DNA of 64,000 nucleotides from an uncultured bacterium (GTDB lineage: Bacteria; Patescibacteriota; Microgenomatia; Levybacterales; UBA12049): contig CAWGXL010000010.1 in assembly GCA_963826535.1 (NCBI GenBank), positions 170,814 through 234,813 of the forward strand, read 5' to 3'. Made by a program: the position numbers and the translations under genes. Shown here piece after piece: positions 22,659 to 51,179 of the stretch. A model generated the notes under the pieces. That model worked only from the letters and a program-made list of their open reading frames with translations. It made no database searches and was not told the origin of the DNA. Position 1 is the stretch's first letter. Every line of letters begins with the position of its first letter.

Positions 22659-22664
22659 ACAGTT

Positions 22665-36052: not shown

Positions 36053-36064
36053 AAATACCCTAAT

Positions 36065-36430
36065 TTACCTCGTTATCAAAATAACTCCCACAAGGATAAC
36101 AAATATCCCTGCGACCTTAGTAGCTGTAATAGGTTCTTTGAACAAAAAATAAGACAATATAAGTATAAATACATAACCCATACTCATCAGCGGCGCAGCA
36201 GCACTAAGTTGGACCTTATTAAGAATCAACACCCACAATATAAATCCCAGCCCAAAAACAGCCAAACCCCCAACGAGGAACCAATTTGTTACTAATTTAA
36301 ACGCGAATGGAAAAACTTCTACAAAATCATGCGGCAATGTTCCTATTTTATTTGCCCCGGTTTTAATCAGCATATTAGCAGTAGTATTTAATAATGCAGC
36401 AACAATAACTAGTAAGTAATAAGGGTTCAT
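36065..36430 (-). CDS. small 4-TM SMR/EamA-like membrane protein, putative polyprenol-P-sugar flippase (ArnE/ArnF/GtrA-like)
   Basis: 121 aa, four hydrophobic helices. ATGA coupling with the upstream epimerase. It sits among ArnC-like and ArnT-like genes. Confidence 0.5.
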   Translation of the reverse strand: MNPYYLLVIVAALLNTTANMLIKTGANKIGTLPHDFVEVFPFAFKLVTNWFLVGGLAVFGLGFILWVLILNKVQLSAAAPLMSMGYVFILILSYFLFKEPITATKVAGIFVILVGVILITR

Positions 36431-37371
36431 ATGATTTTATTATCTAAAACATAGTGTACAGTTTTTGCTATACCTTCCTCAATAGTCAAAGTAGGTTTCC
36501 AGCCAAGTTTACTTAACTTTTTAATCCCTAATTGAACAAACTCGTTGTCCCCCTTCCAATTACTCGCCTTTCCCAACCATTTCTTCTTAACATTTTTATA
36601 ACCGCTCGCATGCAAGATTGCATCAATAATCTGATTGACAGTTAGCACTTGAGTGTGCCCGATATTATAAACATTAAACTGTTCCTTGGATTTTTTTATA
36701 ACCGTAAATATAGCCTCAACTCCATCATTAACATAAAGCGAAGACTTTTTTGGTGTTCCATCCGAAAAAAGCTCCAGTGACTTATTATTTTTCTTGAGTT
36801 TTTTTAAAACGTCAACTATTATTCCGTGAGTATATCTTTCTCCAATGAAAGAAACAAACCGGAAAATAAAACTTGTCATGCCATAATATGAAGCGTAAGT
36901 ACGTATATAAGTTTCACATGCGGCCTTGGTTGCTCCATAAAGCGAGGTCGGTTCAAACGGATAATCTTCAGGAGTTGGATGAATCTTGGCATCACCATAG
37001 ACAGATGAACTTGATGAGAAAGCCATCCTTTTTACATTATTTTTGCACATTGCTTCCAATACATTTTGCGTCATTTCAAGATTTTGTTCATGATCGATAA
37101 AGTGATCATTGAATCCCGAGCGGACATCTGCGTGAGCAGCTAAATGAAAAACAAAGTCAACATTCCTCATTATTTTATTAAGCAAGTCAGTATCTTTAAG
37201 ATCACCCTTTACAAGTTTATAATTTGAATTATTCAGAATGTGTTTTACAAATAATTCTCTTCCAGTAGAGAAATTATCATAAACAATAACTTTATTTTTT
37301 TCTTTAAGAAGCCTGTCAACAATATGACTTCCAATAAATCCTGCCCCACCTGTAACTAATACCGTTTTCAT
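36427..37371 (-). CDS. NAD-dependent epimerase/dehydratase
   Basis: KTVLVTGGAGFIGSHIV and YGATK. Tandem paralog of 35108..36052. Confidence 0.8.
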   Translation of the reverse strand: MKTVLVTGGAGFIGSHIVDRLLKEKNKVIVYDNFSTGRELFVKHILNNSNYKLVKGDLKDTDLLNKIMRNVDFVFHLAAHADVRSGFNDHFIDHEQNLEMTQNVLEAMCKNNVKRMAFSSSSSVYGDAKIHPTPEDYPFEPTSLYGATKAACETYIRTYASYYGMTSFIFRFVSFIGERYTHGIIVDVLKKLKKNNKSLELFSDGTPKKSSLYVNDGVEAIFTVIKKSKEQFNVYNIGHTQVLTVNQIIDAILHASGYKNVKKKWLGKASNWKGDNEFVQLGIKKLSKLGWKPTLTIEEGIAKTVHYVLDNKII

Positions 37372-37600
37372 AAATGCCCTAATTTTCTTTGTTATCGAAA
37401 TAACCCCATGTGTATAGAAAATATCTCCTCTACAATAATAAATGTAATAAGAATTAATTTGTTACTAGTTTAAACCTGAACGGATCAACTTCTATAATAT
37501 CATAGGGGACAACTCTTAACTTATTTACTCTTTTTTTAACCATGTATGCGATTGAATTCAAAAATACCGCAACTATTTTTAATAGATTATTTAATTTCAT
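37372..37600 (-). pseudogene. decayed second copy of the small flippase-like gene (internal deletion plus premature stop)
   Basis: Reverse translation gives MKLNNLLKIVAVFLNSIAYMVKKRVNKLRVVPYDIIEVDPFRFKLVTN*, matching MNPYYLLVIVAALLNTTANMLIKTGANKIGTLPHDFVEVFPFAFKLVTN of 36065..36430. The 3' end (37372-37410) matches the C-terminus and gene junction of copy 1 (36053-36090). The middle ~140 bp is missing. Confidence 0.7.
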
Positions 37601-38343
37601 AATTTCTTTACCACATTCACAATAGATATTCCGACTGGGAATGTTGCGAATCTCTGAACAGAATTTTCAAGTAATTCATAATAGTACAATATTTCATTTA
37701 AAATAGGATGTGTTGAAGCAGAATCCATTTTCAAATCTGCCACCCCATCTTTTTTGGTTGCGTATTTATGAAGAAATTTAAATAAAAAATAAAGTGTAAA
37801 ATCAACATTTTTCTCGGTAAGGACCTTTAGGCCTGCCAATTTGGCGATTTTGGCAAGTTGTTTTTTTTTGTAACGTCTAAAATGTTCTAATCTTATATCC
37901 CGTGTTGACCAAAGATTTTGATGAGCAGGTACAAGAAATATTCCAATTCCTCCCGTTTTCAATACTCTATGTATTTCCTTAATGGCTTTTAGGTCATCTT
38001 GCACGTGTTCTATCACATCGATTGCTGTGATTAAATCAAAACTATTATCCTTAAAGGGAATAATTTTGCCATTAAATAGAAAAGCATTTTTTACACCACG
38101 CATTTTAGTAAATTTAATAGCATCACTCGAAGTATCAATTCCAAACGTTTGATCACTGGTAATTTTTTTTGCAAACTCATTCTGCAGTGTTCCGGTTCCA
38201 CACCCAAAGTCAAGCATCTTAGTTTTATTATAATGCGGATTTCTAAACTGTTCCCATAATTGCAATATTAGCCCCCGTTTAGCCCGGGCGCGCCATTCGT
38301 CTTCATCTAGTTTATAACGTAAATCATAAAAATGTTTTTGCAT
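37597..38343 (-). CDS. class I SAM-dependent methyltransferase
   Basis: Motif I MLDFGCGTGTL, and DLITAIDVIEHV. Confidence 0.75.
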   Translation of the reverse strand: MQKHFYDLRYKLDEDEWRARAKRGLILQLWEQFRNPHYNKTKMLDFGCGTGTLQNEFAKKITSDQTFGIDTSSDAIKFTKMRGVKNAFLFNGKIIPFKDNSFDLITAIDVIEHVQDDLKAIKEIHRVLKTGGIGIFLVPAHQNLWSTRDIRLEHFRRYKKKQLAKIAKLAGLKVLTEKNVDFTLYFLFKFLHKYATKKDGVADLKMDSASTHPILNEILYYYELLENSVQRFATFPVGISIVNVVKKL

Positions 38344-38385
38344 ATACTCTTAACTTATATAAAATTAAGCTTTACCTGACCTAGT

Positions 38386-39378
38386 TTAATTTTTATTTAA
38401 TTTATATAATGTATCTATAACTTTCATTACCTTCAATGCGTCTCTAATTAAAGTAGGCGAGTAGTCTTTTTTTATAATTTTATCAATAAAAATTTTATTC
38501 TCTGTCTCCCACGATAAATCATTCTCTGGGAATACAAACTCTTCTGTATCAGGCGGCCCCATCTCTGGCTTCATTTTATAAAAAGTAAGTTTTTCACGGC
38601 CGTAACTCCCTCCCAATCCGTCTATTTGAATCTTCGCAGTTTTTAACATAATCTCAAAAGAAAAAATATTTTTCCATTCCACGCAACTAACACTCAAATG
38701 CGCTATTTGATTTTTTTTATTTTTCAATATAAAAAAAGCAGAATCTTCCAAATCGGATTTCCAAAAAAGCCTTTCGGTAAAGCCAATTATAGTATCCATT
38801 GTACCGCAAAAATAATTTGTAAGATCTATCAAATGCGGACCTTGATCCATAAGCTCTCCTCCACCCGAAATATTTTTTTTAAACCTCCACTCTCTCTCGT
38901 AACCCAACCTTCCTCCGTGCCCATAACGCGCCCTGATAAATAATAACTCCCCATATTTTTTTGAATCAACCAATTCTTTCGCTTTAATAAACGCCGGATG
39001 ATATCGGTGATTATATCCAAACATAACGACAACAGGACTCTTTTTATGAGCATTACTAATATTTTTCAATTCAGAAATACTTATTCCACCAGGTTTCTCA
39101 ACCAACACATGTTTACCATTGGTGACTGCCTCTGCCGCAATCGGAGCAAGCCAATTATTTGTAGTAGAAATGATGACCGCCCGGATCTTAGAATCAGTTA
39201 TAACTTTCCTCCAGTCAGACTCATAGGTGCACTTGAACTCTTTTGCAAATTGCAATCCTCGCGTAGTGTCTACATCGCATATTAAAGATAAATTTGAAGA
39301 TTTTGGGAGCACCTTTGCTCTTTTCCTGCCAATTAGTCCGGCTCCGATTATAGCGACATTAATATTCTTGACTGTCAT
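38386..39378 (-). CDS. Gfo/Idh/MocA family oxidoreductase
   Basis: NINVAIIGAGLIGRKRA N-terminal Rossmann fold. 330 aa. Confidence 0.75.
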   Translation of the reverse strand: MTVKNINVAIIGAGLIGRKRAKVLPKSSNLSLICDVDTTRGLQFAKEFKCTYESDWRKVITDSKIRAVIISTTNNWLAPIAAEAVTNGKHVLVEKPGGISISELKNISNAHKKSPVVVMFGYNHRYHPAFIKAKELVDSKKYGELLFIRARYGHGGRLGYEREWRFKKNISGGGELMDQGPHLIDLTNYFCGTMDTIIGFTERLFWKSDLEDSAFFILKNKKNQIAHLSVSCVEWKNIFSFEIMLKTAKIQIDGLGGSYGREKLTFYKMKPEMGPPDTEEFVFPENDLSWETENKIFIDKIIKKDYSPTLIRDALKVMKVIDTLYKLNKN

Positions 39379-39436
39379 TGCATGATAAACTATATTTCAA
39401 TTATAATAGAAAACATCATTTAACCCAATAAGGAAT

Positions 39437-40288
39437 ATGAATGTACTTACAGGCAAAACAGCATTAATTACCGGCGGAGCTCGTGGAATTGGAAAAGCAA
39501 TAGCAAGGCAATTTTTAGAAGATGGCGCTCTGGTATTGATTTGCTCAAGAAAAAAAGAAGAACTGGAAAAAACATGTAAAGAATTGGATCCATCGGGAAA
39601 AAAGTTATTTTATTTTGTAGCTGACATTTCCGTATACAACGACTGCGAAAACCTTTTTAATTACTCTCTAAAAATATTCAAAAAACTGGATATTTTAGTA
39701 AACAATGCGGGAGTCTACGGGCCAATTGGTCTACTCGTTGAAAACTCGCCGTCTGAATGGGTAAAAACAATTCACATAAACTTACTTGGTGCAGTTTATT
39801 GTACGAAACTAGCTCTTCCACAAATGAAGAAACAAAAAAAAGGCAAAATCATCAATCTCGCGGGAGCCGGCGTTGGGGGACAAAATCCTCTAAGTAGGTT
39901 TTCAGCATATTACACGTCCAAAGCCGGAATCGCAGCATTTACAGAAGTTATTGCCTCAGAAGTTAGTGAAGATAATATTCAAGTTAATTGTATTTCTCCC
40001 GGTGCAATAAACACTTATTTTATAGATTACCTTCTTTCTCAAGATCCAAAAAATGCAGGCCCAATGTATAAACAAGCGCTTGTTACAAAACGGACAGGCG
40101 GAGATTCTCCCGGCTCTGCAACCAAATTAGTCTCCTTCTTAGCCTCAGACGTAAGTAAAAACGTAACAGGAAAAATTTTGAGTGCAAAATGGGATAAAAT
40201 TGAATTATTAAAAAAATTAAATAAAAAAAACAAGAACTTGTTTACATTAAGAAGAATAGATGAGGAGCTTTTCAGTGAAAAAAAATAA
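39437..40288 (+). CDS. SDR family oxidoreductase
   Basis: TGGARGIGKAIA, NNAG and a YTSKAGI (YxxxK) motif. Confidence 0.8.
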   Translation: MNVLTGKTALITGGARGIGKAIARQFLEDGALVLICSRKKEELEKTCKELDPSGKKLFYFVADISVYNDCENLFNYSLKIFKKLDILVNNAGVYGPIGLLVENSPSEWVKTIHINLLGAVYCTKLALPQMKKQKKGKIINLAGAGVGGQNPLSRFSAYYTSKAGIAAFTEVIASEVSEDNIQVNCISPGAINTYFIDYLLSQDPKNAGPMYKQALVTKRTGGDSPGSATKLVSFLASDVSKNVTGKILSAKWDKIELLKKLNKKNKNLFTLRRIDEELFSEKK

Positions 40289-41567
40289 TAAAGTCGGAGT
40301 TCTCGGTCTTTGGCATTTAGGTACAGTTTATTCTGCTTGTCTTGCAAAACTTGGATTTAGTGTTACAGGTTGGGATATTGATCTGGAAATAATTAATAAT
40401 CTCAAAAAGGGTTTGCCGCCCATAGAGGAACCCCGGCTCAAGGAAACCATAAATGAATTTCTGAATAGAAAACTTGATTTTGTAAGTAAACCAAAGGAAG
40501 CAATTAGTAACAAAAAATACTTATTTATCACTTTTGACGTACCGGTTGACAATAACGATAAAATAAATTTAACCATCATTGATAAAACTTTCAGTTTAAT
40601 CAGTAAATATATCTCGCCCCAAACCACTATAGTTATTTCCAGTCAATTACCTCTAGGATATTCAAGAAAGGGACTAGAATTAATCAAAAAAAAAGAACCT
40701 ACAATTAATGTAATTTATTTACCTGAAAATTTAAGATTAGGGACGGCATTTGAAAGTTTCCTAAAACCGGACAGAATAATAATTGGTTCGAGCGATAAAA
40801 AAATACTAGACATGTTTGAAAAAGATTTCGATTCTCTTAAGTGCCCTTTTATAAAGATCGGCCTGGAAAGCGCTGAAATGGTAAAACATTCACTAAATAG
40901 TTACCTGGCAATGATGATAAGCTTTAGTAGCGAAATAGGGGATCTATGTGAATTATTAGGCGCCAATATGGAAGAAGTAGTAACCGCTCTTAAAACAGAA
41001 AGAAGAATTAGCCCTTATGCACCGCTCAATCCAGGATTAGGTTTTGCTGGTGGCACATTAGGAAGAGATATTCAAACGTTGAGAAGATTAGGCAAAAAAA
41101 AAGGTTACAATTCATTATTGTTAGACTCGATTTATAAAGTAAATCAAAATCGCCTGCCCAACTTAGTAAAAAAAATAAAAACAACCCTCGTTTCTTTAAA
41201 AGAAAAAAAGATTGGTATACTTGGTCTGACCTACAAGCCCAACACGAATACACTTAGGAGATCAATGTCTTTAGAGCTCGCAAATATGTTAAGAATAGAA
41301 GGAGCATTAATTACAGCCTATGACCCCATGATAAAAGAACAGATAGAGAAATTTCATTTTATAAAAATCAAAAAAACAGAGAGTGATTTCTTTAAAGGCC
41401 TTGATCTAATTGTACTTATGACAGAATGGGCGGAATTTAAAAAAATAAATTGGAATGATAATTCCAAATTAATGAAGAATAGATTTATAATTGACACAAA
41501 AAACTTTATTGACACAAAAATACTTGACAAAAATAAAATTAAATATAGCCGGATAGGAATTTCGTAA
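40260..41567 (+). CDS. nucleotide-sugar 6-dehydrogenase (UDP-glucose/GDP-mannose dehydrogenase family)
   Basis: N-terminal KVGVLGLWHLGTVYSACLA Rossmann fold and a C-terminal GLTYKPNTNTLRRS motif. The start codon is ambiguous (40260 ATG or 40275 GTG). Confidence 0.8.
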   Translation: MRSFSVKKNNKVGVLGLWHLGTVYSACLAKLGFSVTGWDIDLEIINNLKKGLPPIEEPRLKETINEFLNRKLDFVSKPKEAISNKKYLFITFDVPVDNNDKINLTIIDKTFSLISKYISPQTTIVISSQLPLGYSRKGLELIKKKEPTINVIYLPENLRLGTAFESFLKPDRIIIGSSDKKILDMFEKDFDSLKCPFIKIGLESAEMVKHSLNSYLAMMISFSSEIGDLCELLGANMEEVVTALKTERRISPYAPLNPGLGFAGGTLGRDIQTLRRLGKKKGYNSLLLDSIYKVNQNRLPNLVKKIKTTLVSLKEKKIGILGLTYKPNTNTLRRSMSLELANMLRIEGALITAYDPMIKEQIEKFHFIKIKKTESDFFKGLDLIVLMTEWAEFKKINWNDNSKLMKNRFIIDTKNFIDTKILDKNKIKYSRIGIS

Positions 41568-41584: not shown

Positions 41585-42505
41585 TTATTGCTTTAACTTG
41601 GCCGTTCCATTTAATCTCCGGGAACGGGTAGTAAGATTCATTTCAGCATTTGCTGGCTTGGCCTCTCCGTTACTTGCATGCATCTCTTTCCATGCGTCAT
41701 CAAACTGCTTGATTGTCTCAACAGTTCTTTGGCTAAACAACATTGAGGTGAGTATTTCCGGTGTAGTAGTACAAATATGTCCTCCTGCTGCGAAAGCTTC
41801 ACCTACCATCGAAGCAGTTCGAATACTGCCAACGATAATCCGTAAATTATCATATCCGCCTTCCTTCAAAAATGTAGCCACAGAACTGACAATTAATTGC
41901 GGTTGTCCATTAATTTCCGATTCAAGACCAACCCGCGGATGGTTTGCCATAAAATCAAATCTGCTGCGATAATTTGCGCTGTCCTCAATAGACCTACCCC
42001 AAAACAAACTTAAAAATGAAGTCTTTAAATTATACCGTGCTGACAATGCCGCGAGAATCATCTGCTCAAAAGTCATAATAGTCGTTACATTAACAGCTAT
42101 ATCAAGCTTAACCAATTCTCTAATAACAAACAGACTTTTTGTAGTGTCGGGAATAAGTGGCACCTTTACAACTACATTCTCAGCAAGATCCGCATATCGT
42201 CTCGCTTCATCCAGCATCTCATCAGGGGTTGCTGTACTGTCCGACAACTCAACAGAAACAGGTTTGTCTTTCATTTCAGCACAAATATCCTTCACTACTT
42301 TGATGAAATTTTTAGGCTTTACACCCTCCTTTAACATGATCGCTTGATTTGAAGTAACCCCATCAATTGCTCCGGTAGCATTCCATTTCTGGATCTCTTC
42401 AATATTTGAAGAATCTATGAAGAGTGATCTGTTAAAATTATAAGATAATCCTTTTTGAAGAGAAAGTTCACCATTGGTAATGTGCAGAATACCGGATGTT
42501 TTCAT
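41585..42505 (-). CDS. transaldolase / fructose-6-phosphate aldolase family protein
   Basis: FIDSSNIEEIQKW...GAIDGVTSNQAIM resembles the transaldolase motifs (DTA..GVTTNP). It has a ~80-aa C-terminal extension. Confidence 0.55.
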   Translation of the reverse strand: MKTSGILHITNGELSLQKGLSYNFNRSLFIDSSNIEEIQKWNATGAIDGVTSNQAIMLKEGVKPKNFIKVVKDICAEMKDKPVSVELSDSTATPDEMLDEARRYADLAENVVVKVPLIPDTTKSLFVIRELVKLDIAVNVTTIMTFEQMILAALSARYNLKTSFLSLFWGRSIEDSANYRSRFDFMANHPRVGLESEINGQPQLIVSSVATFLKEGGYDNLRIIVGSIRTASMVGEAFAAGGHICTTTPEILTSMLFSQRTVETIKQFDDAWKEMHASNGEAKPANAEMNLTTRSRRLNGTAKLKQ

Positions 42506-42562
42506 GTGGGCTTACCTATATGTATACAGAATTTCCGCAGAAATTGCAAGTAGTATTTCTTT

Positions 42563-43282
42563 TTATGTGCGTAATGCAGGATGATAGACCATTAGATGCC
42601 AAAGCAATCCTTGAAAACTTTCAGCATATGGCGTAATTGTTTCTTCGGAAATCACAGGAACCAAAATGGAAACATCCGCAACTTTTCTCGTATACCCTCC
42701 ATTCCGGCTGACAATTCCCAAAACCATTGACCCAACACTTTTAGCATATTCAACAGCCCGGACAATATTTGTACTAACCTTTTTCTCCAAATTACCTCCA
42801 CCGACCGATAAAACCATTACTGCATCTTTCTTCGACAATTTCGATCCGGTTAACCATAGAGCAAACGCAGTATCCCATCCGTCATCATTTATACGCGCGG
42901 TTAACTCAGATACATTATCTACCACAGTATATGATTCTATGTGGGCGATTTTACGGAAATCATTTACAGCATGGGAACAATTTGCCGCACTTCCGCCCAC
43001 TCCCAATAAAAATAGTCTTCCTCCTCTCTTTTTAAGTAGAGCAAGACTATTAATTGTATTTTGAATTTCTTCATGAGAAAGTTTATCAATTACTTTCCTC
43101 GCTCCCTCCAAATAATTCGAAATGAAATATTGCTTAACTTGTCCGTCGCGAAATCCCTGATTTTCTTCTCGAAGTTTTATTACCTCAGACCTTAACACAT
43201 CTATCTGGCGACGTAACGAGCTACTTGATTCTTTAACAGGTGATTGAAGATTATTTCTGATGTTATTCATATCCCTTTTCAT
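42563..43282 (-). CDS. gmhA: phosphoheptose isomerase (SIS domain)
   Basis: RLFLLGVGGSAANCSHAVNDF matches the GmhA GNGGSAAD..HFA.E motif. It has a ~40-aa N-terminal extension. Confidence 0.7.
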   Translation of the reverse strand: MKRDMNNIRNNLQSPVKESSSSLRRQIDVLRSEVIKLREENQGFRDGQVKQYFISNYLEGARKVIDKLSHEEIQNTINSLALLKKRGGRLFLLGVGGSAANCSHAVNDFRKIAHIESYTVVDNVSELTARINDDGWDTAFALWLTGSKLSKKDAVMVLSVGGGNLEKKVSTNIVRAVEYAKSVGSMVLGIVSRNGGYTRKVADVSILVPVISEETITPYAESFQGLLWHLMVYHPALRT

Positions 43283-43310
43283 TTATCAAAAAATTATAGA
43301 AATAGATTAG

Positions 43311-43339
43311 TTGATTTTTGTTTATTTTGCAAGTATCAT
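43311..43339 (+). promoter_or_regulatory. conserved promoter TTGATT-N17-TATCAT (copy 2), near-leaderless for gmhB
   Basis: Same 45-nt motif as 28481-28525. The ATG at 43359 lies ~12 nt after the predicted TSS with no SD. Confidence 0.45.
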
Positions 43340-43358
43340 TATGCAGTAAGTTTTATAT

Positions 43359-43949
43359 ATGACAAAAGCAGCATTTTATGATCGTGACGGAATTATTATA
43401 AAAATGGTATATGATTTGGAAAACGGGCTTATTGAAACGGCAAGCGCCATAGATCAGATTACATTCGTTCCCGGAATAATTAACCTCCTCAAGCATACGG
43501 CCAGCTTGGGATATAAAAATATAATAATCTCAAATCAAGCCGGTATCGGCATAAAAAAAATAAGCGAAGAGAAGTTTAATTCAATTAGTGATGAAATGCT
43601 GGAGAGATTAAGAAAACAAGGTGCAATAATAGACGCGCAGTATTATTGTTTCCACCATCCCTACGCAACAATAGAGAAATACAAAAAAAAATGCGACTGC
43701 CGCAAACCCAAACCTGGTTTACTTCATCAAGCCGCAAAAGAGCACGAAATAGATCTTAAAAAATCCTGGATGATCGGCGACAGTGTCAATGATGTACTAG
43801 CAGGTGAAAAAGCCGGATGTAAAACAATTCTTCTGGCAAATCTTTATGAATCCGAGTATCTCCATATTTTGGAAGAGAAACTTCAAGGAACAAAACCCGA
43901 TTATTTGATAAAGAAATTAAAAGATGCCATTAGCATAATCAAAAATTAA
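43359..43949 (+). CDS. gmhB: D,D-heptose 1,7-bisphosphate phosphatase (HAD-IIIA)
   Basis: DRDGII motif I, the CDCRKPKPG zinc/loop motif and GDSVNDVLAGEKAG motif IV. Confidence 0.85.
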   Translation: MTKAAFYDRDGIIIKMVYDLENGLIETASAIDQITFVPGIINLLKHTASLGYKNIIISNQAGIGIKKISEEKFNSISDEMLERLRKQGAIIDAQYYCFHHPYATIEKYKKKCDCRKPKPGLLHQAAKEHEIDLKKSWMIGDSVNDVLAGEKAGCKTILLANLYESEYLHILEEKLQGTKPDYLIKKLKDAISIIKN

Positions 43950-43953
43950 CTCT

Positions 43954-44715
43954 ATGAAAGCCATCATTATCGCCGGAGGCAAAGGAGAACGACTTCGTCC
44001 TCTCACAGACACTCTCCCCAAGCCAATGATTGAAGTAGCTGGCAAACCAATTATCGAACACATAATTAACTTACTCAAAAAAAACGGAATAACCGATTTT
44101 ATTTTTTCTCTCTGTTATTTACCCATTAAATTTAAAAACTATTTTGGAAATGGCAAACGATTTGGAATTAATATTCAATACATATACGAAAATGAAGCCT
44201 CCCCCCTTGGTACTGCCGGAAATTTGTCATTAGCCCGCGATTTAATTGACTCAACATTTATTGTTACTTATGCTGATATTTTACGGGATCTAAATATCGC
44301 TGATATGATCAAATTTCATAAAAACAAAAAAGCATTTGCCACACTTAATATTTATAAACGTTTTGGTGAAAATCCCAAAAGCAGTGTGTTGTTTGATAAA
44401 AATAATAAGATTACAAATTTCCTCGAACGACCAAAACCAAATGAACTTAATAATAACTTCGTCTGGGCAAACGGCTCATTCTACATTTTCGAACCTGCTA
44501 TATTTAATTTTATTCCGCATAACAAATTTACAGATTTCGGCAAAGACGTTTTCCCCAAACTCCTTAAAGACGGAAAAAATCTCTACGCCTATCCTTCAGA
44601 TAGTTTTTTTGTTGACATTGGCAATCATGAAAAGCTTGCCCAAGCTTCTGAAATGCTAAAATCTAAGAAGACAACTTTGGAGAAAGAAACGCCAACCAAA
44701 CCCCGGCTCCAATGA
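43954..44715 (+). CDS. hddC: D-glycero-alpha-D-manno-heptose 1-phosphate guanylyltransferase (sugar-1-P nucleotidyltransferase)
   Basis: MKAIIIAGGKGERLRPLTDTLPKPM nucleotidyltransferase signature. 253 aa. It is located with gmhA/gmhB/hddA. Confidence 0.65.
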   Translation: MKAIIIAGGKGERLRPLTDTLPKPMIEVAGKPIIEHIINLLKKNGITDFIFSLCYLPIKFKNYFGNGKRFGINIQYIYENEASPLGTAGNLSLARDLIDSTFIVTYADILRDLNIADMIKFHKNKKAFATLNIYKRFGENPKSSVLFDKNNKITNFLERPKPNELNNNFVWANGSFYIFEPAIFNFIPHNKFTDFGKDVFPKLLKDGKNLYAYPSDSFFVDIGNHEKLAQASEMLKSKKTTLEKETPTKPRLQ

Positions 44716-45541
44716 TCAACACCCCGCCAATTATAACTTGCATTGATGGAGTTTCATTTAATAATATTATTCCGTACAGTATAGCTATCACCGGCTCACT
44801 CTTACCAAGTATTGAGGCATGAAGTGCTCGTGTTTGTATCAGGCCAGAAATATGAATAGCTGAAGCGATAACCGCAAAGATAATGCCAAATATTATAAGA
44901 GGAACAAAGTCTTGATTAGTAACATTGAATCCGCCAAATAAAAACATAAAAGGAAACATCATAATAACACTAAATGTATATCGCCAAAAACTTATAGTAC
45001 TTATCGTTAAACCTCTCTGGCTGGTAAGTCTAAAAAAAATAATTATAAGAGCATAAAAGAGAGCAGATGCAAGACCCAAAGTTATTCCCAGCAAATCCTG
45101 CCCGCTCTGCAAACTAATACCATTCCAATAAATGATTACTAGTCCCAAAATCGACACAACTAAAGCAGTCCATTCATATTTATTAGTTTTTTCTTTCAGA
45201 AAATATGGAGCTAGGAAAATAAGAAAAATCGAAACCATCTGATGCGGCAATGCCGTATTGGCAATAGAAGTCAAGCGGAAAGCCTGAAAATACATAAGAT
45301 CATTTGCAACAGCAAAAATCGCGAGCCCAAGAAGAAAAAGCAAATCCTTTCTATTTACCCACAACAAATTTCGTTTCAATGCAATCAGAAAAAATGAGAT
45401 AGCACCAACTAATTGGAAAAAGAAGAGAAATGAAATAGTAGGGATTGCAGGAAAAGCCCTGAGAAAAAGTGCGTAACTCCCAAAAATTAGCATCGCTATA
45501 AGAATAAGAGAGTCACCCTTTGCTTCCTTTGACAACTTCAT
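44663..45541 (-). CDS. EamA/DMT superfamily transporter
   Basis: 292 aa, ten TM, with duplicated EamA-like halves. Confidence 0.55.
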   Translation of the reverse strand: MKLSKEAKGDSLILIAMLIFGSYALFLRAFPAIPTISFLFFFQLVGAISFFLIALKRNLLWVNRKDLLFLLGLAIFAVANDLMYFQAFRLTSIANTALPHQMVSIFLIFLAPYFLKEKTNKYEWTALVVSILGLVIIYWNGISLQSGQDLLGITLGLASALFYALIIIFFRLTSQRGLTISTISFWRYTFSVIMMFPFMFLFGGFNVTNQDFVPLIIFGIIFAVIASAIHISGLIQTRALHASILGKSEPVIAILYGIILLNETPSMQVIIGGVLIIGAGVWLAFLSPKLSS

Positions 45542-45558
45542 ATAAGCCTTGATAATTA

Positions 45559-46536
45559 CTAACTTAAATTAATAAGCACCTTACTCCCTTCCCAATCAAA
45601 ACTAACATTTCTTTCTTCCAGCCCAATACTATTCATTCTTTGACGAAATTTGTTTTTATTTTTATTCACATAAAACACAAACCAGCCCCCGCCGCCTGCG
45701 CCCATAATCTTCCCTCCAAGGGCTCCTGCCTTCATCCCTTCTTTATACCATTCATCTATCTTCGAATTTGTAGAACTTGATTGACGGGTTTTTATTAACC
45801 AATGCGCGTGGAGTGTTGCGCCATATTCGTCAACTTTTCCCGATAGTAGATATTTTTTAGCAAGTTGCCCTAATTCTTTAATATCATCATACATATTAAT
45901 AAACTTTTTTGAATTTTCATCTTTTTTCATAACCGACTTTTTTCCCTCTCCATGTATTTTTGCCGTCTCATGCTGCATTCCGGTTCTGAAAAATAAAAAA
46001 TTACTTTCGAGTTGCGTTATAGTATCAACCGATAAACGCAGGGGAGTGACTGTAACTCGTCCTTTTTTATCAAGTTCAAAATAATTTATTCCTCCAAATG
46101 CCGTTATATACTGATCCTGCGGCCCGACAGGTTTTTGCAAACGATCAATCTCAATTTCGCAAGCCTCTTTTGCCAATTGAAGTGCTGACACCGGCTCTTT
46201 TTTATAAGCATGAAGGGCATGAAGCAGACCGACTTCAAAAGCTCCTGACCCCCCAATCCCTGATTTGCTCGTTGCCTCCGACATAGTTGAAATCTCAATC
46301 CCTTTTTTGACACCAGTCAAATCCAGACATTCTCTTACAATTGGATTTTGTAATTTTTTATAATCATTGGTTACTGTAATTGTTTCGCCATCGGAAATTT
46401 TTAACAGTTTAGGTTCCTCGAATTTACAAAGTGTTATAAAAATATATTTATCAATTGCAGCACTGATCCATGCCCCGCCTCTTAACTTCGCATACCAAAG
46501 AAGATCTGTCCCGCCTCCTGCCAGAGTAATTCTCAT
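45559..46536 (-). CDS. hddA: D-glycero-alpha-D-manno-heptose 7-phosphate kinase (GHMP kinase)
   Basis: MRITLAGGGTDL N-terminus and a GGSGAFEVGLLHAL GHMP motif. The start is taken at the internal Met (46536), because the 45-aa upstream extension has no homology. Confidence 0.7.
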   Translation of the reverse strand: MRITLAGGGTDLLWYAKLRGGAWISAAIDKYIFITLCKFEEPKLLKISDGETITVTNDYKKLQNPIVRECLDLTGVKKGIEISTMSEATSKSGIGGSGAFEVGLLHALHAYKKEPVSALQLAKEACEIEIDRLQKPVGPQDQYITAFGGINYFELDKKGRVTVTPLRLSVDTITQLESNFLFFRTGMQHETAKIHGEGKKSVMKKDENSKKFINMYDDIKELGQLAKKYLLSGKVDEYGATLHAHWLIKTRQSSSTNSKIDEWYKEGMKAGALGGKIMGAGGGGWFVFYVNKNKNKFRQRMNSIGLEERNVSFDWEGSKVLINLS

Positions 46537-46594
46537 TGGAGTTTTAGTAATAATCACAAAAATTATTCTAGCACAATACATTCCTTTACAAAAG

Positions 46595-46616
46595 CCGATT
46601 TGTATCGTAAAATCGG
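46595..46616. promoter_or_regulatory. inverted repeat CCGATTT-N8-AAATCGG in divergent intergenic region (candidate operator)
   Basis: Perfect 7-bp arms. It lies between hddA (-) and the HD-domain gene (+), just upstream of the likely ATG at 46627. Confidence 0.3.
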
Positions 46617-46626
46617 TTTTATTCAT

Positions 46627-47469
46627 ATGCCACGAGAAACATTTGTAGCTATTCGAAATCTTATAGCTCAATCTGAACCCATACCACCTGACCTGGCAGC
46701 AAAAGATGAGTTAAACAAACAGAAAGCAAAAACCTTTGATAGAATTGCCCAAGCTAACATGGGAGCTATGCGTATATTAAAGGAAGGTGGGGTTTTAGGC
46801 GGTGGGCCATTTGGTAAAGAAGCTAAAGAAACAGGATGGAGAAATGTTGGCGAACACAATGGCGCAGCATTATTTGTGTCACGTCCAATCGGAGAGCTTT
46901 GTGGTCTACCGCGAGGTGAGCAAAGAGAGCTTGAACATGCTGCTGGTATGCATGATTATGATAAACGGATACAACTAGAAGAGAGCAAGTTGGGGAAAAG
47001 AAGAACTTCTGAAGGTATAATGATCATAGAATATGATGCAAGTAAAGTAGCTCAAGATGAAGTTGATAATACAGGATTAGTCGGAGTAACAAAGGGCGAT
47101 TTAAGAGGACACGAAAAGTGGGGATACCAACAAATGGCTCTACGTTATACAGACTCAATTCTTGTCCCAATACCTAAAACTGCTCATACTGATATAGTTC
47201 ACTGGAGAGACAGAATTAATGAATTAAGAAAAAGACATCCCGATGCTGATAAAGAACAAGGTAGATTATACGGCGAGGGAGTACGATTCTATGACGTACT
47301 CGAGCGGATTATGGAAGAAATTGAACCTAAACTGTATGAAAGAGCAATTCTGGTCCGCCCTGAATTAAGAAAAAAATATCCAAGATCAGATATGTATTTT
47401 CAAATAGTTAAAGATCGAATTATGGCAAATATAAAAAACACGCCGTTAAAAACTCAAAAAGCTTCTTAG
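46627..47469 (+). CDS. HD-domain metal-dependent phosphohydrolase
   Basis: H...HD motif (NVGEHNGAALF ... EHAAGMHDYDK). ~42% GC versus ~31% in the surroundings. The start at ATG 46627 is preferred over the TTG at 46600. Confidence 0.55.
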   Translation: MPRETFVAIRNLIAQSEPIPPDLAAKDELNKQKAKTFDRIAQANMGAMRILKEGGVLGGGPFGKEAKETGWRNVGEHNGAALFVSRPIGELCGLPRGEQRELEHAAGMHDYDKRIQLEESKLGKRRTSEGIMIIEYDASKVAQDEVDNTGLVGVTKGDLRGHEKWGYQQMALRYTDSILVPIPKTAHTDIVHWRDRINELRKRHPDADKEQGRLYGEGVRFYDVLERIMEEIEPKLYERAILVRPELRKKYPRSDMYFQIVKDRIMANIKNTPLKTQKAS

Positions 47470-48470: not shown

Positions 48471-49418
48471 ATGATAAGCATAGTAGTACCCGTACTAAAC
48501 GAAGAAGAAAGCCTGGAGCCATTTTATCAAGAGCTCCACAAAATTATACTCGAACTCAAAGTTGATTACGAAATCATCTTTATTGACGACGGATCAACTG
48601 ACAATTCATTGGAAATACTAAAAAAGTTATTCAAAGTCAATGACAAAATAAGGATATTTTCCTTCAGGAGAAATTTAGGAAAATCCGAAGCTCTCAGCTT
48701 AGGTTTTATAAAAGCCAAAGGAGATTTTATTATCACCCTCGATGCAGATCTACAAGATAAACCCTCGGAAATACCCAAGCTTCTGCGCATTGCTAAAGAT
48801 GGAATTGATGTGGTATCCGGATGGAGAAAAAACAGAAAAGACAAATCCCGCATGTTGATTATTTCCCGTTTATTTAATTTTTTAATGGGAATGCTATTCA
48901 ATCTTCATCTACATGATTATAATTGCGGAATAAAGTTATATACCAGAGATGCTGCCAAAAGCCTGCGTCTGTACGGAGGGCTTCACCGTTTTATTCCTCT
49001 TCTGGCTTACGAACAAGGATTTACCGTAGATGAAGTGATAGTTGAACATGCGTCAAGAAAGTATGGCAAATCAAAGTATAATTTTTCCAAACTCTGGAAA
49101 GACGTACCCGATATGTTTACAATGCTGTTTCTTGTAAAATATGGCAAACGCCCTTTACATTTTTTTGGTATTGTTGGAGGAGTATTAACACTAATCGGAT
49201 TTATTGTACTAGGTTACTTAGCTGTCCTTCGCTTTTCAGGAGAAACGATTGGTAATCGGCCTCTACTATTTTTTGGTATGTTACTTCTACTTGCCGGATT
49301 CCAAATATTTTTTACAGGATTCCTTGCAGATCTGATGATTAACATTTCTCATAATCCAAAATTTCTCAATGAAGAGAACCCTCATTATCCTATTAAATAC
49401 GCCAGCGAAAAATTATGA
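48471..49418 (+). CDS. polyprenol-phosphate sugar synthase with C-terminal TM helices (ArnC/GtrB-like GT2)
   Basis: ISIVVPVLNEEESL..FIDDGSTDNS..TLDADLQD, plus two C-terminal TM helices as in GtrB/ArnC. Confidence 0.8.
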   Translation: MISIVVPVLNEEESLEPFYQELHKIILELKVDYEIIFIDDGSTDNSLEILKKLFKVNDKIRIFSFRRNLGKSEALSLGFIKAKGDFIITLDADLQDKPSEIPKLLRIAKDGIDVVSGWRKNRKDKSRMLIISRLFNFLMGMLFNLHLHDYNCGIKLYTRDAAKSLRLYGGLHRFIPLLAYEQGFTVDEVIVEHASRKYGKSKYNFSKLWKDVPDMFTMLFLVKYGKRPLHFFGIVGGVLTLIGFIVLGYLAVLRFSGETIGNRPLLFFGMLLLLAGFQIFFTGFLADLMINISHNPKFLNEENPHYPIKYASEKL

Positions 49419-49993
49419 TTATCGGAATTGATATTTCCCAAATGGCTTATGAGAATACTGGAGTGGCAAACTATTTAGAAAGTCTAATAAAAAGTTTATT
49501 TGCAAAAGATGATAAAAATGAATATATATTATTTTTCTCATCTTTAAGACGAACTATTCATTTTTCATCTGATTTAATAGGGACTCAATCAAATCACAAA
49601 GTTTCGATTAAGCAATTTAAAATCCCTCCATTTTTTTTAGATATCCTTTGGAACAAACTTCACATTTTCCCTATAGAATGGTTCATTGGTAATGTAGACA
49701 TATTTATTTCCTCAGACTGGACAGAGCCGCCTACAAGGAAAGCAAAAAAAGTTACAATATTATATGATTTTATTATATTTAAACACCCGGAAGAAACGCA
49801 TAATATAACAGAGTTTAAAGTAAAAAAGTTAATTCTTTCACCAAATATTGTGGCTATTCAGAAAAGAAAATTACTTTGGATGAAAAAGGAATGCAAACTT
49901 ATCATTTGTATTTCAGAGTCTACAAAGCGGGATGCAATAGAGATGCTAGGTATTGAAGAAAAACGGTTGAAAGTAATTTATCCCGGAGTTTAA
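49415..49993 (+). CDS. truncated GT4 paralog (N-terminal Rossmann domain only)
   Basis: MIIGIDISQMAYENTGVANY... ends at KVIYPGV*. This corresponds to the first ~165 aa of the next gene (MIIGIDGNEANVTNKVGISEF ... VVYPGIKP). Confidence 0.55.
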   Translation: MIIGIDISQMAYENTGVANYLESLIKSLFAKDDKNEYILFFSSLRRTIHFSSDLIGTQSNHKVSIKQFKIPPFFLDILWNKLHIFPIEWFIGNVDIFISSDWTEPPTRKAKKVTILYDFIIFKHPEETHNITEFKVKKLILSPNIVAIQKRKLLWMKKECKLIICISESTKRDAIEMLGIEEKRLKVIYPGV

Positions 49994-49997: not shown

Positions 49998-51179
49998 ATG
50001 ATTATAGGTATTGATGGAAATGAGGCAAATGTAACAAATAAAGTAGGCATAAGCGAATTTGCTTTCCAACTTCTTTTGCAATTTTCAAATCTAAAAAGCT
50101 CAAAATTTAATATATACTTAAAAAGTAAACCAAAAGATGACTTGCCTAAGCCGGACAATAATTGGCAATATAGAACTGTAACTCCCGGAAAACTCTGGAC
50201 TCAATGGCGACTGCCGCTGGATTTATATTTACATCAGCCGAGGCCAAATGTTTTTTTCAGCCCGACACATTATGCCCCTAGATTCTCTCCTGTCCCCACA
50301 GTTATTTCCATTATGGATTTGTCTTATCTTTATTTCCCTAAAATGTTTAAAAAATCTGATTTATATCAACTTCGAAGTTGGACATCCTACTCCGCAAAAA
50401 AGGCACAAAGAGTCTTAACCATAAGCAACTCAAGCAAGTTTGCTATAATCAAAGAATATAAAATACCTGAGGATAAGGTGATAGTCGTTTACCCGGGTAT
50501 CAAGCCTGCCCGCCTGCCTGCCGGTCAGGCAGGTCCGGCAGGCGGGCCAACTGTTTACCGGGAGCCGAAGGTTTTATCTATGAATACAGTAAAAGCGAAA
50601 TACGGTATAAGTGATAAATTTATTCTCTTTGTAGGTACATTACAGCCGAGGAAAAACATTGTCAGATTAATAGAAGCGTTCGCAAAAGTCTTATCCCAGG
50701 AAAAAATACCTAAAAATCTTCAATTGTTAATTGTCGGCAAAAAAGGTTGGTTATACGAAGAAATATTGAGAAAGCCAAAAGAATTAGGTATTGAGGAAAA
50801 AGTAAAATTTCTTGACTTTGTCTCCGATGACGAATTAGCAGTTCTCTACAATAATGCTTTATGTTTCATTCTCCCGAGCCTATATGAAGGTTTTGGGCTT
50901 CCGGTATTAGAAGCTATGAAGCACGGATGTCCGGTTATCACAAGTAATGTATCAAGTCTTCCCGAAGCTGGCGGTGACGCTGCAATTTACATAGACCCGG
51001 AAGATATAAATGATCTTACAGAAAAAATCCTAAAACTTATAACCAATGAAAAATTACGCCAGGAATTAATCGAAAAAGGTAAGAAGCAGGCAGCGAAGTT
51101 TAGTTGGGAGAAAACAGCCACGGAAACTTTAAAAGTATTAGAAGAGGTTGGTTCCTTGTCTTCCCGACCGAAGCGATAG
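49998..51179 (+). CDS. GT4 family glycosyltransferase with GC-rich in-frame insertion in the interdomain linker
   Basis: EGFGLPVLEAMKHGCPVI motif. The inserted segment PARLPAGQAGPAGGP is encoded by a ~45-bp, ~80% GC palindrome. Confidence 0.8.
   Translation: MIIGIDGNEANVTNKVGISEFAFQLLLQFSNLKSSKFNIYLKSKPKDDLPKPDNNWQYRTVTPGKLWTQWRLPLDLYLHQPRPNVFFSPTHYAPRFSPVPTVISIMDLSYLYFPKMFKKSDLYQLRSWTSYSAKKAQRVLTISNSSKFAIIKEYKIPEDKVIVVYPGIKPARLPAGQAGPAGGPTVYREPKVLSMNTVKAKYGISDKFILFVGTLQPRKNIVRLIEAFAKVLSQEKIPKNLQLLIVGKKGWLYEEILRKPKELGIEEKVKFLDFVSDDELAVLYNNALCFILPSLYEGFGLPVLEAMKHGCPVITSNVSSLPEAGGDAAIYIDPEDINDLTEKILKLITNEKLRQELIEKGKKQAAKFSWEKTATETLKVLEEVGSLSSRPKR
50504..50548 (+). repeat. GC-rich imperfect palindrome (CCTGCC x3 / GGCAGG x3) embedded in frame in a coding sequence
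   Basis: GCCTGCCCGCCTGCCTGCCGGTCAGGCAGGTCCGGCAGGCGGGCC. The outer 11-bp arms GCCCGCCTGCC and GGCAGGCGGGC are perfectly complementary. Confidence 0.6.

Follow-up and report, generated by a model that had tools for sequence, protein, structure and literature searches.

A conserved nine-gene cassette

The stretch of DNA analysed here (64,000 nucleotides of a Levybacterales genome; hereafter the window) carries, at positions 41585–46557, five genes whose families were confirmed with Pfam and NCBIfam: a CPR-subtype transaldolase/FSA-family enzyme (TAL; 41585..42505, minus strand; TAL_FSA 101 bits), a SIS-domain sugar-phosphate isomerase with a GmhA fold (42563..43282, minus), a HAD-IIIA phosphatase of the GmhB/histidinol-phosphatase type (43359..43949, plus), a short sugar-1-phosphate nucleotidyltransferase (43954..44715, plus; NTP_transferase 142 bits) and a GHMP anomeric sugar-phosphate kinase of the HddA/WcbL type (45559..~46557, minus). 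Thousands of homologues are known for these five, which are therefore genuine genes. All lie on the strands given in the original prediction, which had taken them for a complete GDP-heptose gene set; the five genes stand, but four conserved tailoring genes and an EamA gene had been missed. The latter, for an EamA/DMT-family membrane transporter (44663..45541, minus; Pfam EamA 110 bits), sits between the nucleotidyltransferase and kinase genes. The 84 comparison loci contain no EamA homologue, and the insertion of this gene into the cassette is specific to this window.

The functional unit is a nine-gene cassette that reaches left from the five core genes to 36427. Its other members (36427–41567) encode an NAD-dependent epimerase/dehydratase (extended SDR; 36427..37371, minus; Pfam Epimerase 175.7 bits), a Gfo/Idh/MocA NAD(P) oxidoreductase (38386..39378, minus; Pfam GFO_IDH_MocA and its C3 domain), a classical short-chain dehydrogenase/reductase (SDR; 39437..40288, plus; Pfam adh_short 182 bits) and a UGDH-like protein of the nucleotide-sugar-dehydrogenase family (40260..41567, plus; TIGR03026 304 bits). 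The five core genes are thus the front half of a conserved and horizontally mobile cassette. Its order, EPI-UGDHlike-SDR-GFO-GHMP-NTP-SIS-HAD-TAL, is colinear in Legionella, Rhizobium, Leptolyngbya, Gammaproteobacteria, Burkholderiaceae, Elusimicrobia and Acidobacteriota; the cassette is complete but rearranged in CPR, Pelagibacteraceae and a Lawsonia plasmid, and is abundant in Acidobacteriota and Polyangiaceae. Being common in CPR as well as in many other phyla, it is no anomaly in this genome, where such a pathway had been called unexpected. The cassette probably supplies the glycosylation island around it with a nucleotide-activated higher-carbon sugar, which it would both build and tailor.

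Isomerase, phosphatase, nucleotidyltransferase and kinase

The SIS protein had been assigned as GmhA, which holds for the fold but not for the curated equivalog: its AF2 model (pLDDT 87) finds GmhA structures as best folds (TM 0.74–0.81, 22–25% identity), but it scores 45.5 bits against TIGR00441 (GmhA), whose cut-off is 209. The catalytic His, Gln and Ser of GmhA are kept, Glu65 is replaced by Asp and Thr120 by Val, the phosphate loop carries an insertion and an N-terminal helix spans ~45 residues. With 50–63% identity across phyla, these proteins form a distinct, very conserved family and are not canonical GmhA.

The GmhB-like nature of the phosphatase was borne out by NCBIfam (TIGR00213 136 bits, cut-off 149.6; TIGR01656 120.8 bits, cut-off 84) and by E. 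coli GmhB structures as top PDB matches (95 bits). Its motifs include DRDG and KKCDCRKPKPG, within which lies the CDCRKPKPG quoted earlier; DxDG and C-x-H...C-x-C are recognisable in its sequence.

For the kinase, which has an LAGGGTD motif, the top family is HddA (NF049969, 156 bits, cut-off 600; mevalonate kinase 64), and the PDB matches are WcbL (4usm, 3e-35) and, far behind, galactokinase (6e-11). With HddA/WcbL heptokinases best in both PDB and NCBIfam, the kinase falls with these rather than with galactokinase or mevalonate kinase. The alignment with WcbL begins ~7 residues upstream of the Met at 46536, so that this residue, earlier taken as the end coordinate of the gene set, is an internal Met and the kinase probably starts at GTG 46557 or ATG 46581.

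The nucleotidyltransferase is closest to ManC-type guanylyltransferase in NCBIfam (156 bits). HddC ranks only seventh (91 bits, cut-off 300), behind several families that include MurU besides the ManC type, and ties with RmlA-long; the top PDB match is a UTP-glucose-1-P uridylyltransferase (8x7s), and HddC structures (6jq8, 5xhw) reach ~58 bits. GDP as the nucleotide is therefore not established. Of the proposed HddA and HddC identities, the HddA family of the kinase was upheld, but neither protein attains its equivalog cut-off. The logic of the predicted pathway, from ketose-phosphate isomerase to anomeric kinase, phosphatase and nucleotidyltransferase, is sound.

Extending the original prediction, these proteins could belong to a route to NDP-D-glycero-D-manno-heptose from sedoheptulose-7-P, in which the in-cluster TAL would merely boost sedoheptulose-7-P and the four redox enzymes would alter the heptose, for instance through oxidation at C6 with epimerisation, or through deoxygenation. 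We regard this as a real possibility, though at clearly less than even odds. The four reaction types and folds are the same as in the GDP-heptose pathway that serves the S-layer glycan of Aneurinibacillus, the capsules of Campylobacter and Burkholderia and the O-antigen of Yersinia; the kinase is nearest WcbL/HddA, the phosphatase GmhB and the isomerase, by fold and retained catalytic residues, GmhA. Glycans, moreover, commonly contain heptoses but not octoses. Set against this are the separate isomerase family, far under the GmhA cut-off, the missed HddA and HddC cut-offs, with HddC not the top match of the nucleotidyltransferase, and the presence of a dedicated TAL.

The transaldolase is a dedicated pathway enzyme

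The window TAL scores 102 bits against TIGR00875 (cut-off 246) and, like its CPR subtype, has a ~24-residue insertion and a tail of 27 residues at the C-terminus; its catalytic residues, Asp, Glu and the Schiff-base Lys, all align. Among the 48 loci in which the SIS gene is flanked by 8 kb or more on either side, cassette-family TAL is the tightest partner of that gene (44/48), ahead of the kinase (40/48), HAD (30/48) and NTP (29/48) genes, and fused TAL-SIS, HAD-SIS and NTP-SIS proteins were found. CPR-type TAL homologues lay inside the cassette in all six neighbourhoods read, two of them reached via the SIS gene and four chosen solely for the length of their contigs. The SIS linkage, the six CPR neighbourhoods and the TAL-SIS fusions make TAL a dedicated pathway enzyme and not the mere adjacent gene of the original prediction.

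The CPR-subtype and non-CPR (TIGR02134-type) cassette TALs share only 28–30% identity, compared to 55% for SIS, and TAL activity is thus retained across cassettes despite divergent proteins. Both types have a conserved Met at the position that, in the known TalC/FSA enzymes, discriminates transaldolase (Phe) from FSA (Tyr).

The tightness of the TAL-SIS linkage, exceeding that of kinase and SIS and extending at times to fusion, argues against a mere supply of sedoheptulose-7-P, as does the occurrence of the cassette in Rhizobium, Burkholderiaceae and cyanobacteria, where a full pentose-phosphate pathway is expected. Furthermore, we know of no transaldolase in the characterised GDP-heptose clusters of Aneurinibacillus, Campylobacter, Yersinia, Burkholderia or Mycobacterium. 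On the other hand, the non-CPR TAL passes the 'Staphylococcus-type' transaldolase equivalog cut-off (326 bits, cut-off 282) and hence is not visibly specialised, as a heptose route would have it.

Tailoring enzymes

The UGDH-like protein has GGTLGRD in place of the canonical GGSCFPKD and lacks the catalytic Cys. When aligned with the UGDH structures 3gg2 and 3vtf, the protein shows Thr at this position, as do 22/22 cassette-type sequences aligned (the window and 21 other loci); a second, canonical UGDH in one locus (L058) retains the Cys. Formation of a uronic acid is consequently impossible by the known mechanism. In this the cassette differs from WbpA/WbpB of 2,3-diacetamido-mannuronic acid synthesis, in which a UGDH-family 6-dehydrogenase and a Gfo/Idh/MocA 3-dehydrogenase likewise occur together, with a nucleotide sugar as their substrate; it also has neither an aminotransferase nor an acetyltransferase of its own. 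Campylobacter GDP-heptose is tailored by SDR and cupin enzymes, unlike the Cys-less UGDH-like, Gfo/Idh/MocA and SDR enzymes here.

Identities to the proteins of the CPR locus L004 and of Legionella (L084) are 78% and 47% for the epimerase, 66% and 45% for the Gfo/Idh/MocA protein, and 60% and 40% for the SDR. The epimerase is colinear within the cassette across many phyla, the SDR is colinear too, and the Lawsonia oxidoreductase is annotated as Gfo/Idh/MocA. Cassette tails vary, from the epimerase alone to all four redox genes. One CPR variant has an extra inositol-monophosphatase-like gene and a second HAD gene.

The variable tails, this CPR variant and the conserved Met of both TAL types might point to a TAL using another acceptor or donor (arabinose-5-P, hexose phosphate) or working in an FSA-type aldolase mode, to yield a different higher sugar unlike those of both model pathways (C8 of another configuration, C9, or a branched or unusual sugar nucleotide). 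This is improbable: nothing positive favours any particular alternative substrate, and the four core activities match the heptose/octose scheme exactly.

Resemblance to the lincosamide octose pathway

Lincosamide sugar genes encode a transaldolase (R), an isomerase (N), a kinase (P), a phosphatase (K) and a nucleotidyltransferase (O), together with a 436-aa dehydrogenase of the nucleotide-sugar-dehydrogenase family (L), an oxidoreductase of ~330 aa (Z) and an epimerase (M) (PMC4351081 supplement; PMC12945683). LmbR is a transaldolase, octulose-8-P being formed from ribose-5-P (PMC5854111), and the closest non-lincosamide homologues of CcbK, CcbO, CcbZ, CcbN and CcbP are from Acidobacteria and Sorangium (PMC4351081 supplement).

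Compared at the level of enzyme families, the cassette has the LmbR/N/P/K/O/L/Z/M content in one cluster: TAL is in an LmbR-like position, SIS LmbN/GmhA-like, HAD GmhB/LmbK-like, the nucleotidyltransferase HddC/LmbO-like, the kinase HddA/LmbP-like, and the UGDH-like, Gfo/Idh/MocA and epimerase proteins LmbL-, LmbZ- and LmbM-like, respectively. LmbZ is reported to be a Gfo/Idh/MocA member, and LmbL and CcbZ to carry out 6,8-dehydration. To our knowledge, the lincosamide route is the only characterised pathway with a transaldolase as an integral member. At this family level, the eight-carbon-sugar pathway of lincomycin appears to be no worse a fit to the cassette than any pathway to a heptose. 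It differs in having a classical SDR instead of the PLP transaminase LmbS, in lacking a carrier-protein domain on the isomerase or oxidoreductase, in lying in a glycosyltransferase island rather than an antibiotic cluster, and in its distribution over many phyla.

We favour an NDP-octose-type product (probability roughly 0.5) over an NDP-heptose, given the synteny, the linkage, dedication and retained activity of TAL, the non-canonical SIS, the Cys-less UGDH-like protein, the match to the lincosamide literature and the Ccb relatives. The enzyme families, the synteny, the dedication of TAL, the lost UGDH Cys and the wide distribution are what the data show; all substrates, the carbon number (C8 rather than C7), the nucleotide and the final product are what we infer. 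The dedicated transaldolase would form a ketose phosphate; by analogy to LmbR, this would be octulose-8-P, made by moving a C3 unit onto ribose-5-P with fructose-6-P or sedoheptulose-7-P as the donor. The GmhA-fold SIS enzyme would convert this to an aldose phosphate, which the HddA-like kinase would phosphorylate at O-1; the GmhB-like phosphatase would then remove the terminal phosphate and the short nucleotidyltransferase generate the NDP-sugar. This may next be oxidised, dehydrated or reduced, and epimerised by the Cys-less UGDH-like, Gfo/Idh/MocA, SDR and epimerase enzymes, likely to an NDP-deoxy-octose; the SDR would here reduce a keto intermediate of the kind on which LmbS would act as a transaminase in lincomycin synthesis. 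Finally, glycosyltransferases of the island would attach the sugar to a glycan of the cell surface.

Several points weigh against an octose. The kinase, phosphatase and isomerase all have heptose enzymes as their best characterised relatives, the cassette has no aminotransferase, and the non-CPR TAL shows no visible specialisation. Gene clusters sometimes include precursor-supply genes, too, so that TAL possibly tops up sedoheptulose-7-P, and we know of no report of free octoses in bacterial polysaccharides.

The window also has an accessory gene for a SAM-dependent methyltransferase (37597..38343, minus; Pfam Methyltransf_11/23). In most of the CPR loci read, a methyltransferase gene adjoins the cassette or lies close by: weak homologues adjoin it in L004 and L010, and methyltransferases adjoin it in L087, L088 and L090 and lie near it in L089.

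Gene content of the cassette

All five open reading frames of the complete GDP-heptose set that the original prediction had located at 41585-46536 (transaldolase, GmhA, GmhB, HddC and HddA) are present, and Pfam and NCBIfam searches confirmed the family of each: a transaldolase/FSA-family protein (TAL; 41585-42505, minus strand), a SIS-domain protein (SIS; 42563-43282, minus strand), a HAD-IIIA phosphatase with DRDG and KKCDCRKPKPG motifs (HAD; 43359-43949, plus strand), a short nucleotidyltransferase (NTP; 43954-44715, plus strand) and a GHMP kinase with an LAGGGTD motif (GHMP; from 45559, minus strand). The predicted span covers these genes except at its right end, 46536, which is an internal Met of the kinase. 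Because the alignment of the kinase with WcbL begins ~7 residues upstream of this Met, translation is likelier to start at the GTG at 46557 or the ATG at 46581. An EamA/DMT transporter gene that the prediction did not mention (44663-45541, minus strand) lies between the NTP and kinase genes, its 3' end overlapping that of the convergent NTP gene by 53 bp, and this insertion is absent from every other cassette copy examined.

To the left of TAL, the cassette continues with a gene of the nucleotide-sugar-dehydrogenase family (UGDH-like; 40260-41567; assigned with NCBIfam and Pfam), a classical SDR gene (39437-40288), a Gfo/Idh/MocA oxidoreductase gene (GFO; 38386-39378) and, beyond it, an epimerase/dehydratase gene (EPI; 36427-37371), where a methyltransferase gene is also found. 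A promoter and terminator scan gave no enrichment over shuffled sequences and says nothing on operon structure.

Relationship of the core enzymes to heptose enzymes

We next compared the core enzymes with curated families and solved structures. The SIS protein, predicted to be GmhA, scored 45.5 bits against TIGR00441 (GmhA), far from the cut-off of 209.45, with the copy from a Legionella cassette at 53.8 bits, and scored ~35 bits against solved GmhAs. For its AF2 model (pLDDT 87), all 24 of the best PDB matches were phosphoheptose isomerases (GmhA or annotated as such), with TM(target) mostly 0.74-0.81 and 18-26% identity. The GmhA fold is thus upheld in the model and membership of TIGR00441 is not, and the SIS protein is, as modelled, a distant GmhA relative with a GmhA-type fold. 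Relative to E. coli GmhA, its family retains His61, Asp94, Ser124 and Gln172, has an invariant Asp in place of the catalytic Glu65 and Val in place of Thr120, and carries six extra residues in the phosphate-binding loop (STSGNS in E. coli GmhA) and a further insertion before the C-terminal helix; an invariant His lies five residues past Gln172, in ambiguous register relative to His175/His180. Family members are 55-80% identical across phyla and far from GmhA. The SIS protein of the window also has, within residues 1-50, a ~45-residue N-terminal extension predicted as one long helix (pLDDT 60-90), which is common to a CPR subset (P0002-P0005, P0074, P0087 and P0100) and missing in most members of the family.

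The kinase proved to be of the HddA type, as predicted, grouping with heptokinases and with neither galactokinase nor mevalonate kinase. Its best NCBIfam family was HddA (155.7 bits, below the cut-off of 600), followed by mevalonate kinase at 64 bits; its best solved relatives were WcbL and two Bacteroides heptokinases (E from 3e-35 to 5e-32), with WcbL 4usm at 3e-35, 3k85 at 2e-34 and galactokinase reaching only 6e-11. The GHMP motifs GGGTD, SGIGGSGA and GAGGGG are intact. The HAD phosphatase scored 136 bits against TIGR00213, just under the cut-off of 149.6, and is thus GmhB-like in kinship and motifs while falling short of that family model: E. coli GmhB is the closest solved relative (95 bits), and the DRDG nucleophile motif and the YCFHHP...CDCRKPKPG zinc-loop motif align with those of E. 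coli GmhB (3l8e, 2gmw). Against TIGR01656, a histidinol-phosphatase-type domain, it scored 120.8 bits, above the cut-off of 84.15.

The NTP could not be equated with HddC. This family (NF049965) ranked only seventh, at 91.4 bits against a cut-off of 300, level with RmlA-long and outscored by ManC-type guanylyltransferase (155.8), archaeal GlmU type, MurU (123.6) and others, and the HddC structures 6jq8 and 5xhw matched at ~58 bits compared to 145 for the best structure, 8x7s. With the GmhA, HddA and HddC cut-offs all missed, neither 'GDP' nor membership of the curated heptose equivalogs finds support. The family assignments do argue for the predicted reaction scheme of isomerase, kinase, phosphatase and nucleotidyltransferase.

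The transaldolase is a dedicated cassette member

TAL passed the PF00923 cut-off (101 bits versus 27) and did not reach that of TIGR00875 (102 versus 246). Its catalytic Asp, Glu and Schiff-base Lys align with those of 1vpx and 3s0c and are kept in both types of cassette TAL. We assessed its association with the SIS gene using family HMMs built from cassette members in 48 loci where the SIS gene is flanked left and right by at least 8 kb; thresholds were conservative and many MAG genes fragmented. Cassette-type TAL was present in 44 of these 48 loci, the kinase in 40, HAD in 30 and NTP in 29, and the tailoring genes were near SIS in 27 (epimerase), 22 (GFO), 18 (SDR) and 14 (UGDH-like). Moreover, among the best 150 SIS representatives at 50% identity (P0127-P0261 range, all scoring at least 185 bits) there were 13 NTP-SIS, 16 HAD-SIS or SIS-HAD and two TAL-SIS fusions, as read from protein sequences, some of which may be gene-calling artefacts. 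Conversely, four further CPR-type TAL homologues, selected solely because their contigs were long, were all inside a cassette, and every CPR-type TAL whose neighbourhood was read (6/6, two of them reached via the SIS gene) is a cassette gene. TAL is hence not merely adjacent, as had been supposed, but a dedicated member of the cassette.

CPR and non-CPR cassette TALs are only 28-30% identical, compared to 55% for the corresponding SIS proteins; the CPR subtype has a ~24-residue insertion, and the non-CPR one is of the TIGR02134 type (326 bits, cut-off 282). Because subfamilies this diverged share the cassette role and the catalytic residues, transaldolase activity is predicted to be retained in the pathway across them, and likewise in lineages whose pentose-phosphate pathway should be of the ordinary kind.

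The cassette is syntenic across phyla and common in CPR

In the first two related contigs, both CPR-like, the GHMP, SIS, NTP, HAD, TAL, UGDH-like, GFO and epimerase genes are clustered, in one of them (L004) together with a classical SDR gene. A scan for the SIS family over one genome per GTDB species found matches in at least 588 genomes, the best 80 of which (48-63% identity to the SIS protein of the window) came from Acidobacteriota, Gamma- and Alphaproteobacteria (Legionella, Pelagibacteraceae, Rhizobium and Halieaceae), Burkholderiaceae, Omnitrophota, Elusimicrobia, Verrucomicrobia, Planctomycetes, Chloroflexota, Chlorobium, Leptolyngbya, Myxococcota, Micrarchaeota and CPR. In many of these best 80 loci, the order EPI-UGDHlike-SDR-GFO-GHMP-NTP-SIS-HAD-TAL is strictly colinear on a single strand. 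The complete set is also on plasmid 3 of Lawsonia intracellularis (NC_008014.1), where the RefSeq names are generic ('SIS domain-containing protein', 'HAD-IIIA family hydrolase', 'transaldolase', 'nucleotide sugar dehydrogenase', 'SDR', 'Gfo/Idh/MocA', 'galactokinase' and 'nucleotidyltransferase'). The Legionella and Leptolyngbya copies share 49-70% identity over all nine proteins, which indicates that the cassette moved as a whole module by horizontal transfer.

The closest relatives of the window proteins are from CPR (among the named matches, Gottesmanbacteria, Saccharimonadales, Roizmanbacteria, Shapirobacteria and Patescibacteria group), in agreement with the CPR-specific TAL subtype. All 8000 scored candidates of the SIS search were significant, and the best 120 matches of the SIS and TAL searches alike had 59% identity or more to the proteins of the window, with many SIS/TAL pairs on shared contigs. 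A pathway of this type had been considered unexpected in a CPR-like organism without LPS; since the cassette is common among CPR relatives, it is typical of CPR glycosylation islands and no anomaly. No HldE/RfaE-type gene was found within the 64-kb window, and in the literature searched neither the cassette nor an octose as part of a glycan had been described. The Coxiella O-antigen region with a 'phosphoheptose isomerase' was rejected as an instance of the same system, since it uses an HldE-type bifunctional enzyme (CBU0678).

Several loci have additional genes. In two CPR contigs, toxin-antitoxin pairs (HEPN/MNT, PIN/PhD, HicAB) lie amid the cassette genes, at 5000-6700 and 11896-12575 in L089 and at 3802-4438, 6052-6782 and 10239-10732 in L090, and the cassette persists. 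In CPR locus L001, NTP and TAL are separated by an additional gene of the inositol-monophosphatase family and a further HAD gene (9314-10141, 10757-11614); upstream (1-1667) are a transketolase split into N and C halves and a DegT aminotransferase. On the Lawsonia plasmid (L085), two ~1090-aa hypothetical proteins (8530-11814, 20366-23635) flank the cassette, into which a gene is inserted whose product has a lysyl-phosphatidylglycerol-synthase transmembrane domain.

Comparison with the lincosamide octose pathway

We know of only one characterised pathway whose gene cluster combines a TAL with an isomerase of the GmhA kind, a GHMP kinase, a phosphatase resembling GmhB and a short nucleotidyltransferase, namely the branch that makes the amino-octose of lincomycin and celesticetin. 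In this branch, LmbR transfers a C3 unit from fructose-6-phosphate or sedoheptulose-7-phosphate onto ribose-5-phosphate to give octulose-8-phosphate (PMC5854111), LmbN carries out the isomerase step, LmbP, LmbK and LmbO lead to GDP-octose, and LmbM, LmbL, LmbZ/CcbZ and LmbS/CcbS convert this to GDP-lincosamide (PMC12945683). The celesticetin set comprises CcbR (transaldolase, 222 aa), CcbN (isomerase, 202 aa), CcbP (GHMP-type kinase, 323 aa), CcbK (phosphatase, 185 aa), CcbO (nucleotidyltransferase, 232 aa), CcbL (436 aa, nearest relative a 'nucleotide sugar dehydrogenase'), the CcbZ oxidoreductase domain (~330 aa) and CcbM (epimerase, 325 aa) (PMC4351081). Matched on these descriptions, the cassette has the same families at almost the same lengths, and eight of the nine Lmb sugar-enzyme families, compared by family and description, are present and syntenic in it. 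The cassette differs in having a classical SDR where the lincosamide pathway has a transaminase (LmbS); no DegT aminotransferase equivalent to LmbS was found in the window or inside any cassette, and one is nearby in eight loci.

The closest non-lincosamide homologues of CcbK, CcbO, CcbZ, CcbN and CcbP were, in 2015, from Acidobacteria and Sorangium (PMC4351081), and both Acidobacteriota and Polyangiaceae are rich in cassettes. With a Polyangiaceae SIS protein as the query, no named Sorangium cellulosum protein was among the matches, and LmbN/CcbN were not among the best 150 SIS representatives, which at 185 bits or more are close family members only.

In the UGDH-like protein, Thr occupies the site of the catalytic Cys (GGTLGRD versus GGSCFPKD in 3gg2 and 3vtf), as in all 22 cassette-type sequences aligned (that of the window and 21 others); a second, canonical UGDH in one locus retains the Cys. 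Because of this replacement, the enzyme is predicted to be unable to form a uronic acid via the established thiohemiacetal mechanism, and a two-electron oxidation is more probable. LmbL and CcbZ are said, in a 2020 PNAS study, to perform a 6,8-dehydration jointly, a reaction that requires an exocyclic C6-C7-C8 chain, and a Cys-less dehydrogenase-family protein would fit a non-canonical role of this kind.

Proposed pathway and product

Enzyme families, synteny, the dedication of TAL, the loss of the Cys and the distribution are observed; we infer the substrates, carbon number, nucleotide and product as follows. The dedicated TAL would form a ketose phosphate, in the favoured case octulose-8-phosphate from ribose-5-phosphate, which the SIS enzyme would convert to the aldose phosphate. 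The GHMP kinase would then phosphorylate O-1, the HAD phosphatase would take off the terminal phosphate and the nucleotidyltransferase would yield an NDP-sugar, for tailoring by the UGDH-like, GFO, SDR and epimerase enzymes, possibly to a deoxy-octose. The SDR would reduce the keto group that LmbS would aminate, and some of the many glycosyltransferases of the island would attach the finished sugar. By analogy with the lincosamide enzymes, we give an octose-type product a probability of about 0.5. The heptose originally proposed, with TAL supplying sedoheptulose-7-phosphate and a tailoring arm added, is a less probable though serious candidate: among characterised proteins, heptose enzymes are the best relatives of the core enzymes, as would be expected of the Lmb enzymes too. 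Another higher sugar as the product appears improbable.

The cassette is therefore best described, on the analogies drawn here, as a widespread higher-sugar module that has been annotated only generically, whose nearest apparent analogue is the lincosamide octose pathway no less than the GDP-heptose one. More tentatively, and at somewhat short of even odds, transaldolase-initiated, lincosamide-like C8 sugars, likely as NDP-deoxy-octose, would be widespread and so far unrecognised in bacterial surface glycans, in CPR and at least a dozen other phyla, and the lincosamine pathway would be a specialised offshoot of a primary glycan cassette. Were the product an octose, cell surfaces would commonly be built with a type of sugar that is otherwise known from a Streptomyces antibiotic only, in carriers that include candidate-phyla bacteria, soil Acidobacteriota, Legionellales, rhizobia and the pig pathogen Lawsonia, and we would also know from where the lincosamine pathway evolved. 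Even with a heptose, there stands a nine-gene module that is coherent, highly conserved, horizontally transferred and hitherto named generically ('SIS domain protein', 'galactokinase', 'transaldolase'), as does a UGDH-like family devoid of the catalytic cysteine, and the view of such a pathway as out of place in CPR is corrected.

Other features of the island

Nearly all of the window (1-64000) is a glycosylation island with ~20 glycosyltransferase genes (GT2, GT4), several methyltransferases and, among its membrane proteins, two Wzy_C-like, two PMT-like and one YfhO-like. Besides the two epimerase/dehydratases at 35108-37371, there are two more at 10005-10976 and 21711-22658. A second Gfo/Idh/MocA gene is at 34080-35132 and a hexapeptide acetyltransferase gene at 51273-51866, and a ManC-type nucleotidyltransferase gene (60290-61372) is followed by one for a Bac_transf priming transferase (61375-62037). 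Six island ORFs of 217-564 aa (36-1259, 3785-5326, 5323-6948, 7148-8842, 9253-9906 and 30336-31784) have no Pfam family at E ≤ 0.001. Divergent from the kinase gene, and in a region of higher local GC (0.38), is an ORF at 46600-47469 (plus strand, probable start 46627, ~280 aa) that has no Pfam or NCBIfam match and no homologue in 84 related loci; it contains an H...HD-like motif (GEHNG...AAGMHDYDK). Finally, a 192-aa ORF at 49415-49993 ends with a partial Glyco_transf_4 domain and a full GT4 gene begins 4 bp on (49998-51179), and the former may be a glycosyltransferase fragment that arose by duplication or truncation.
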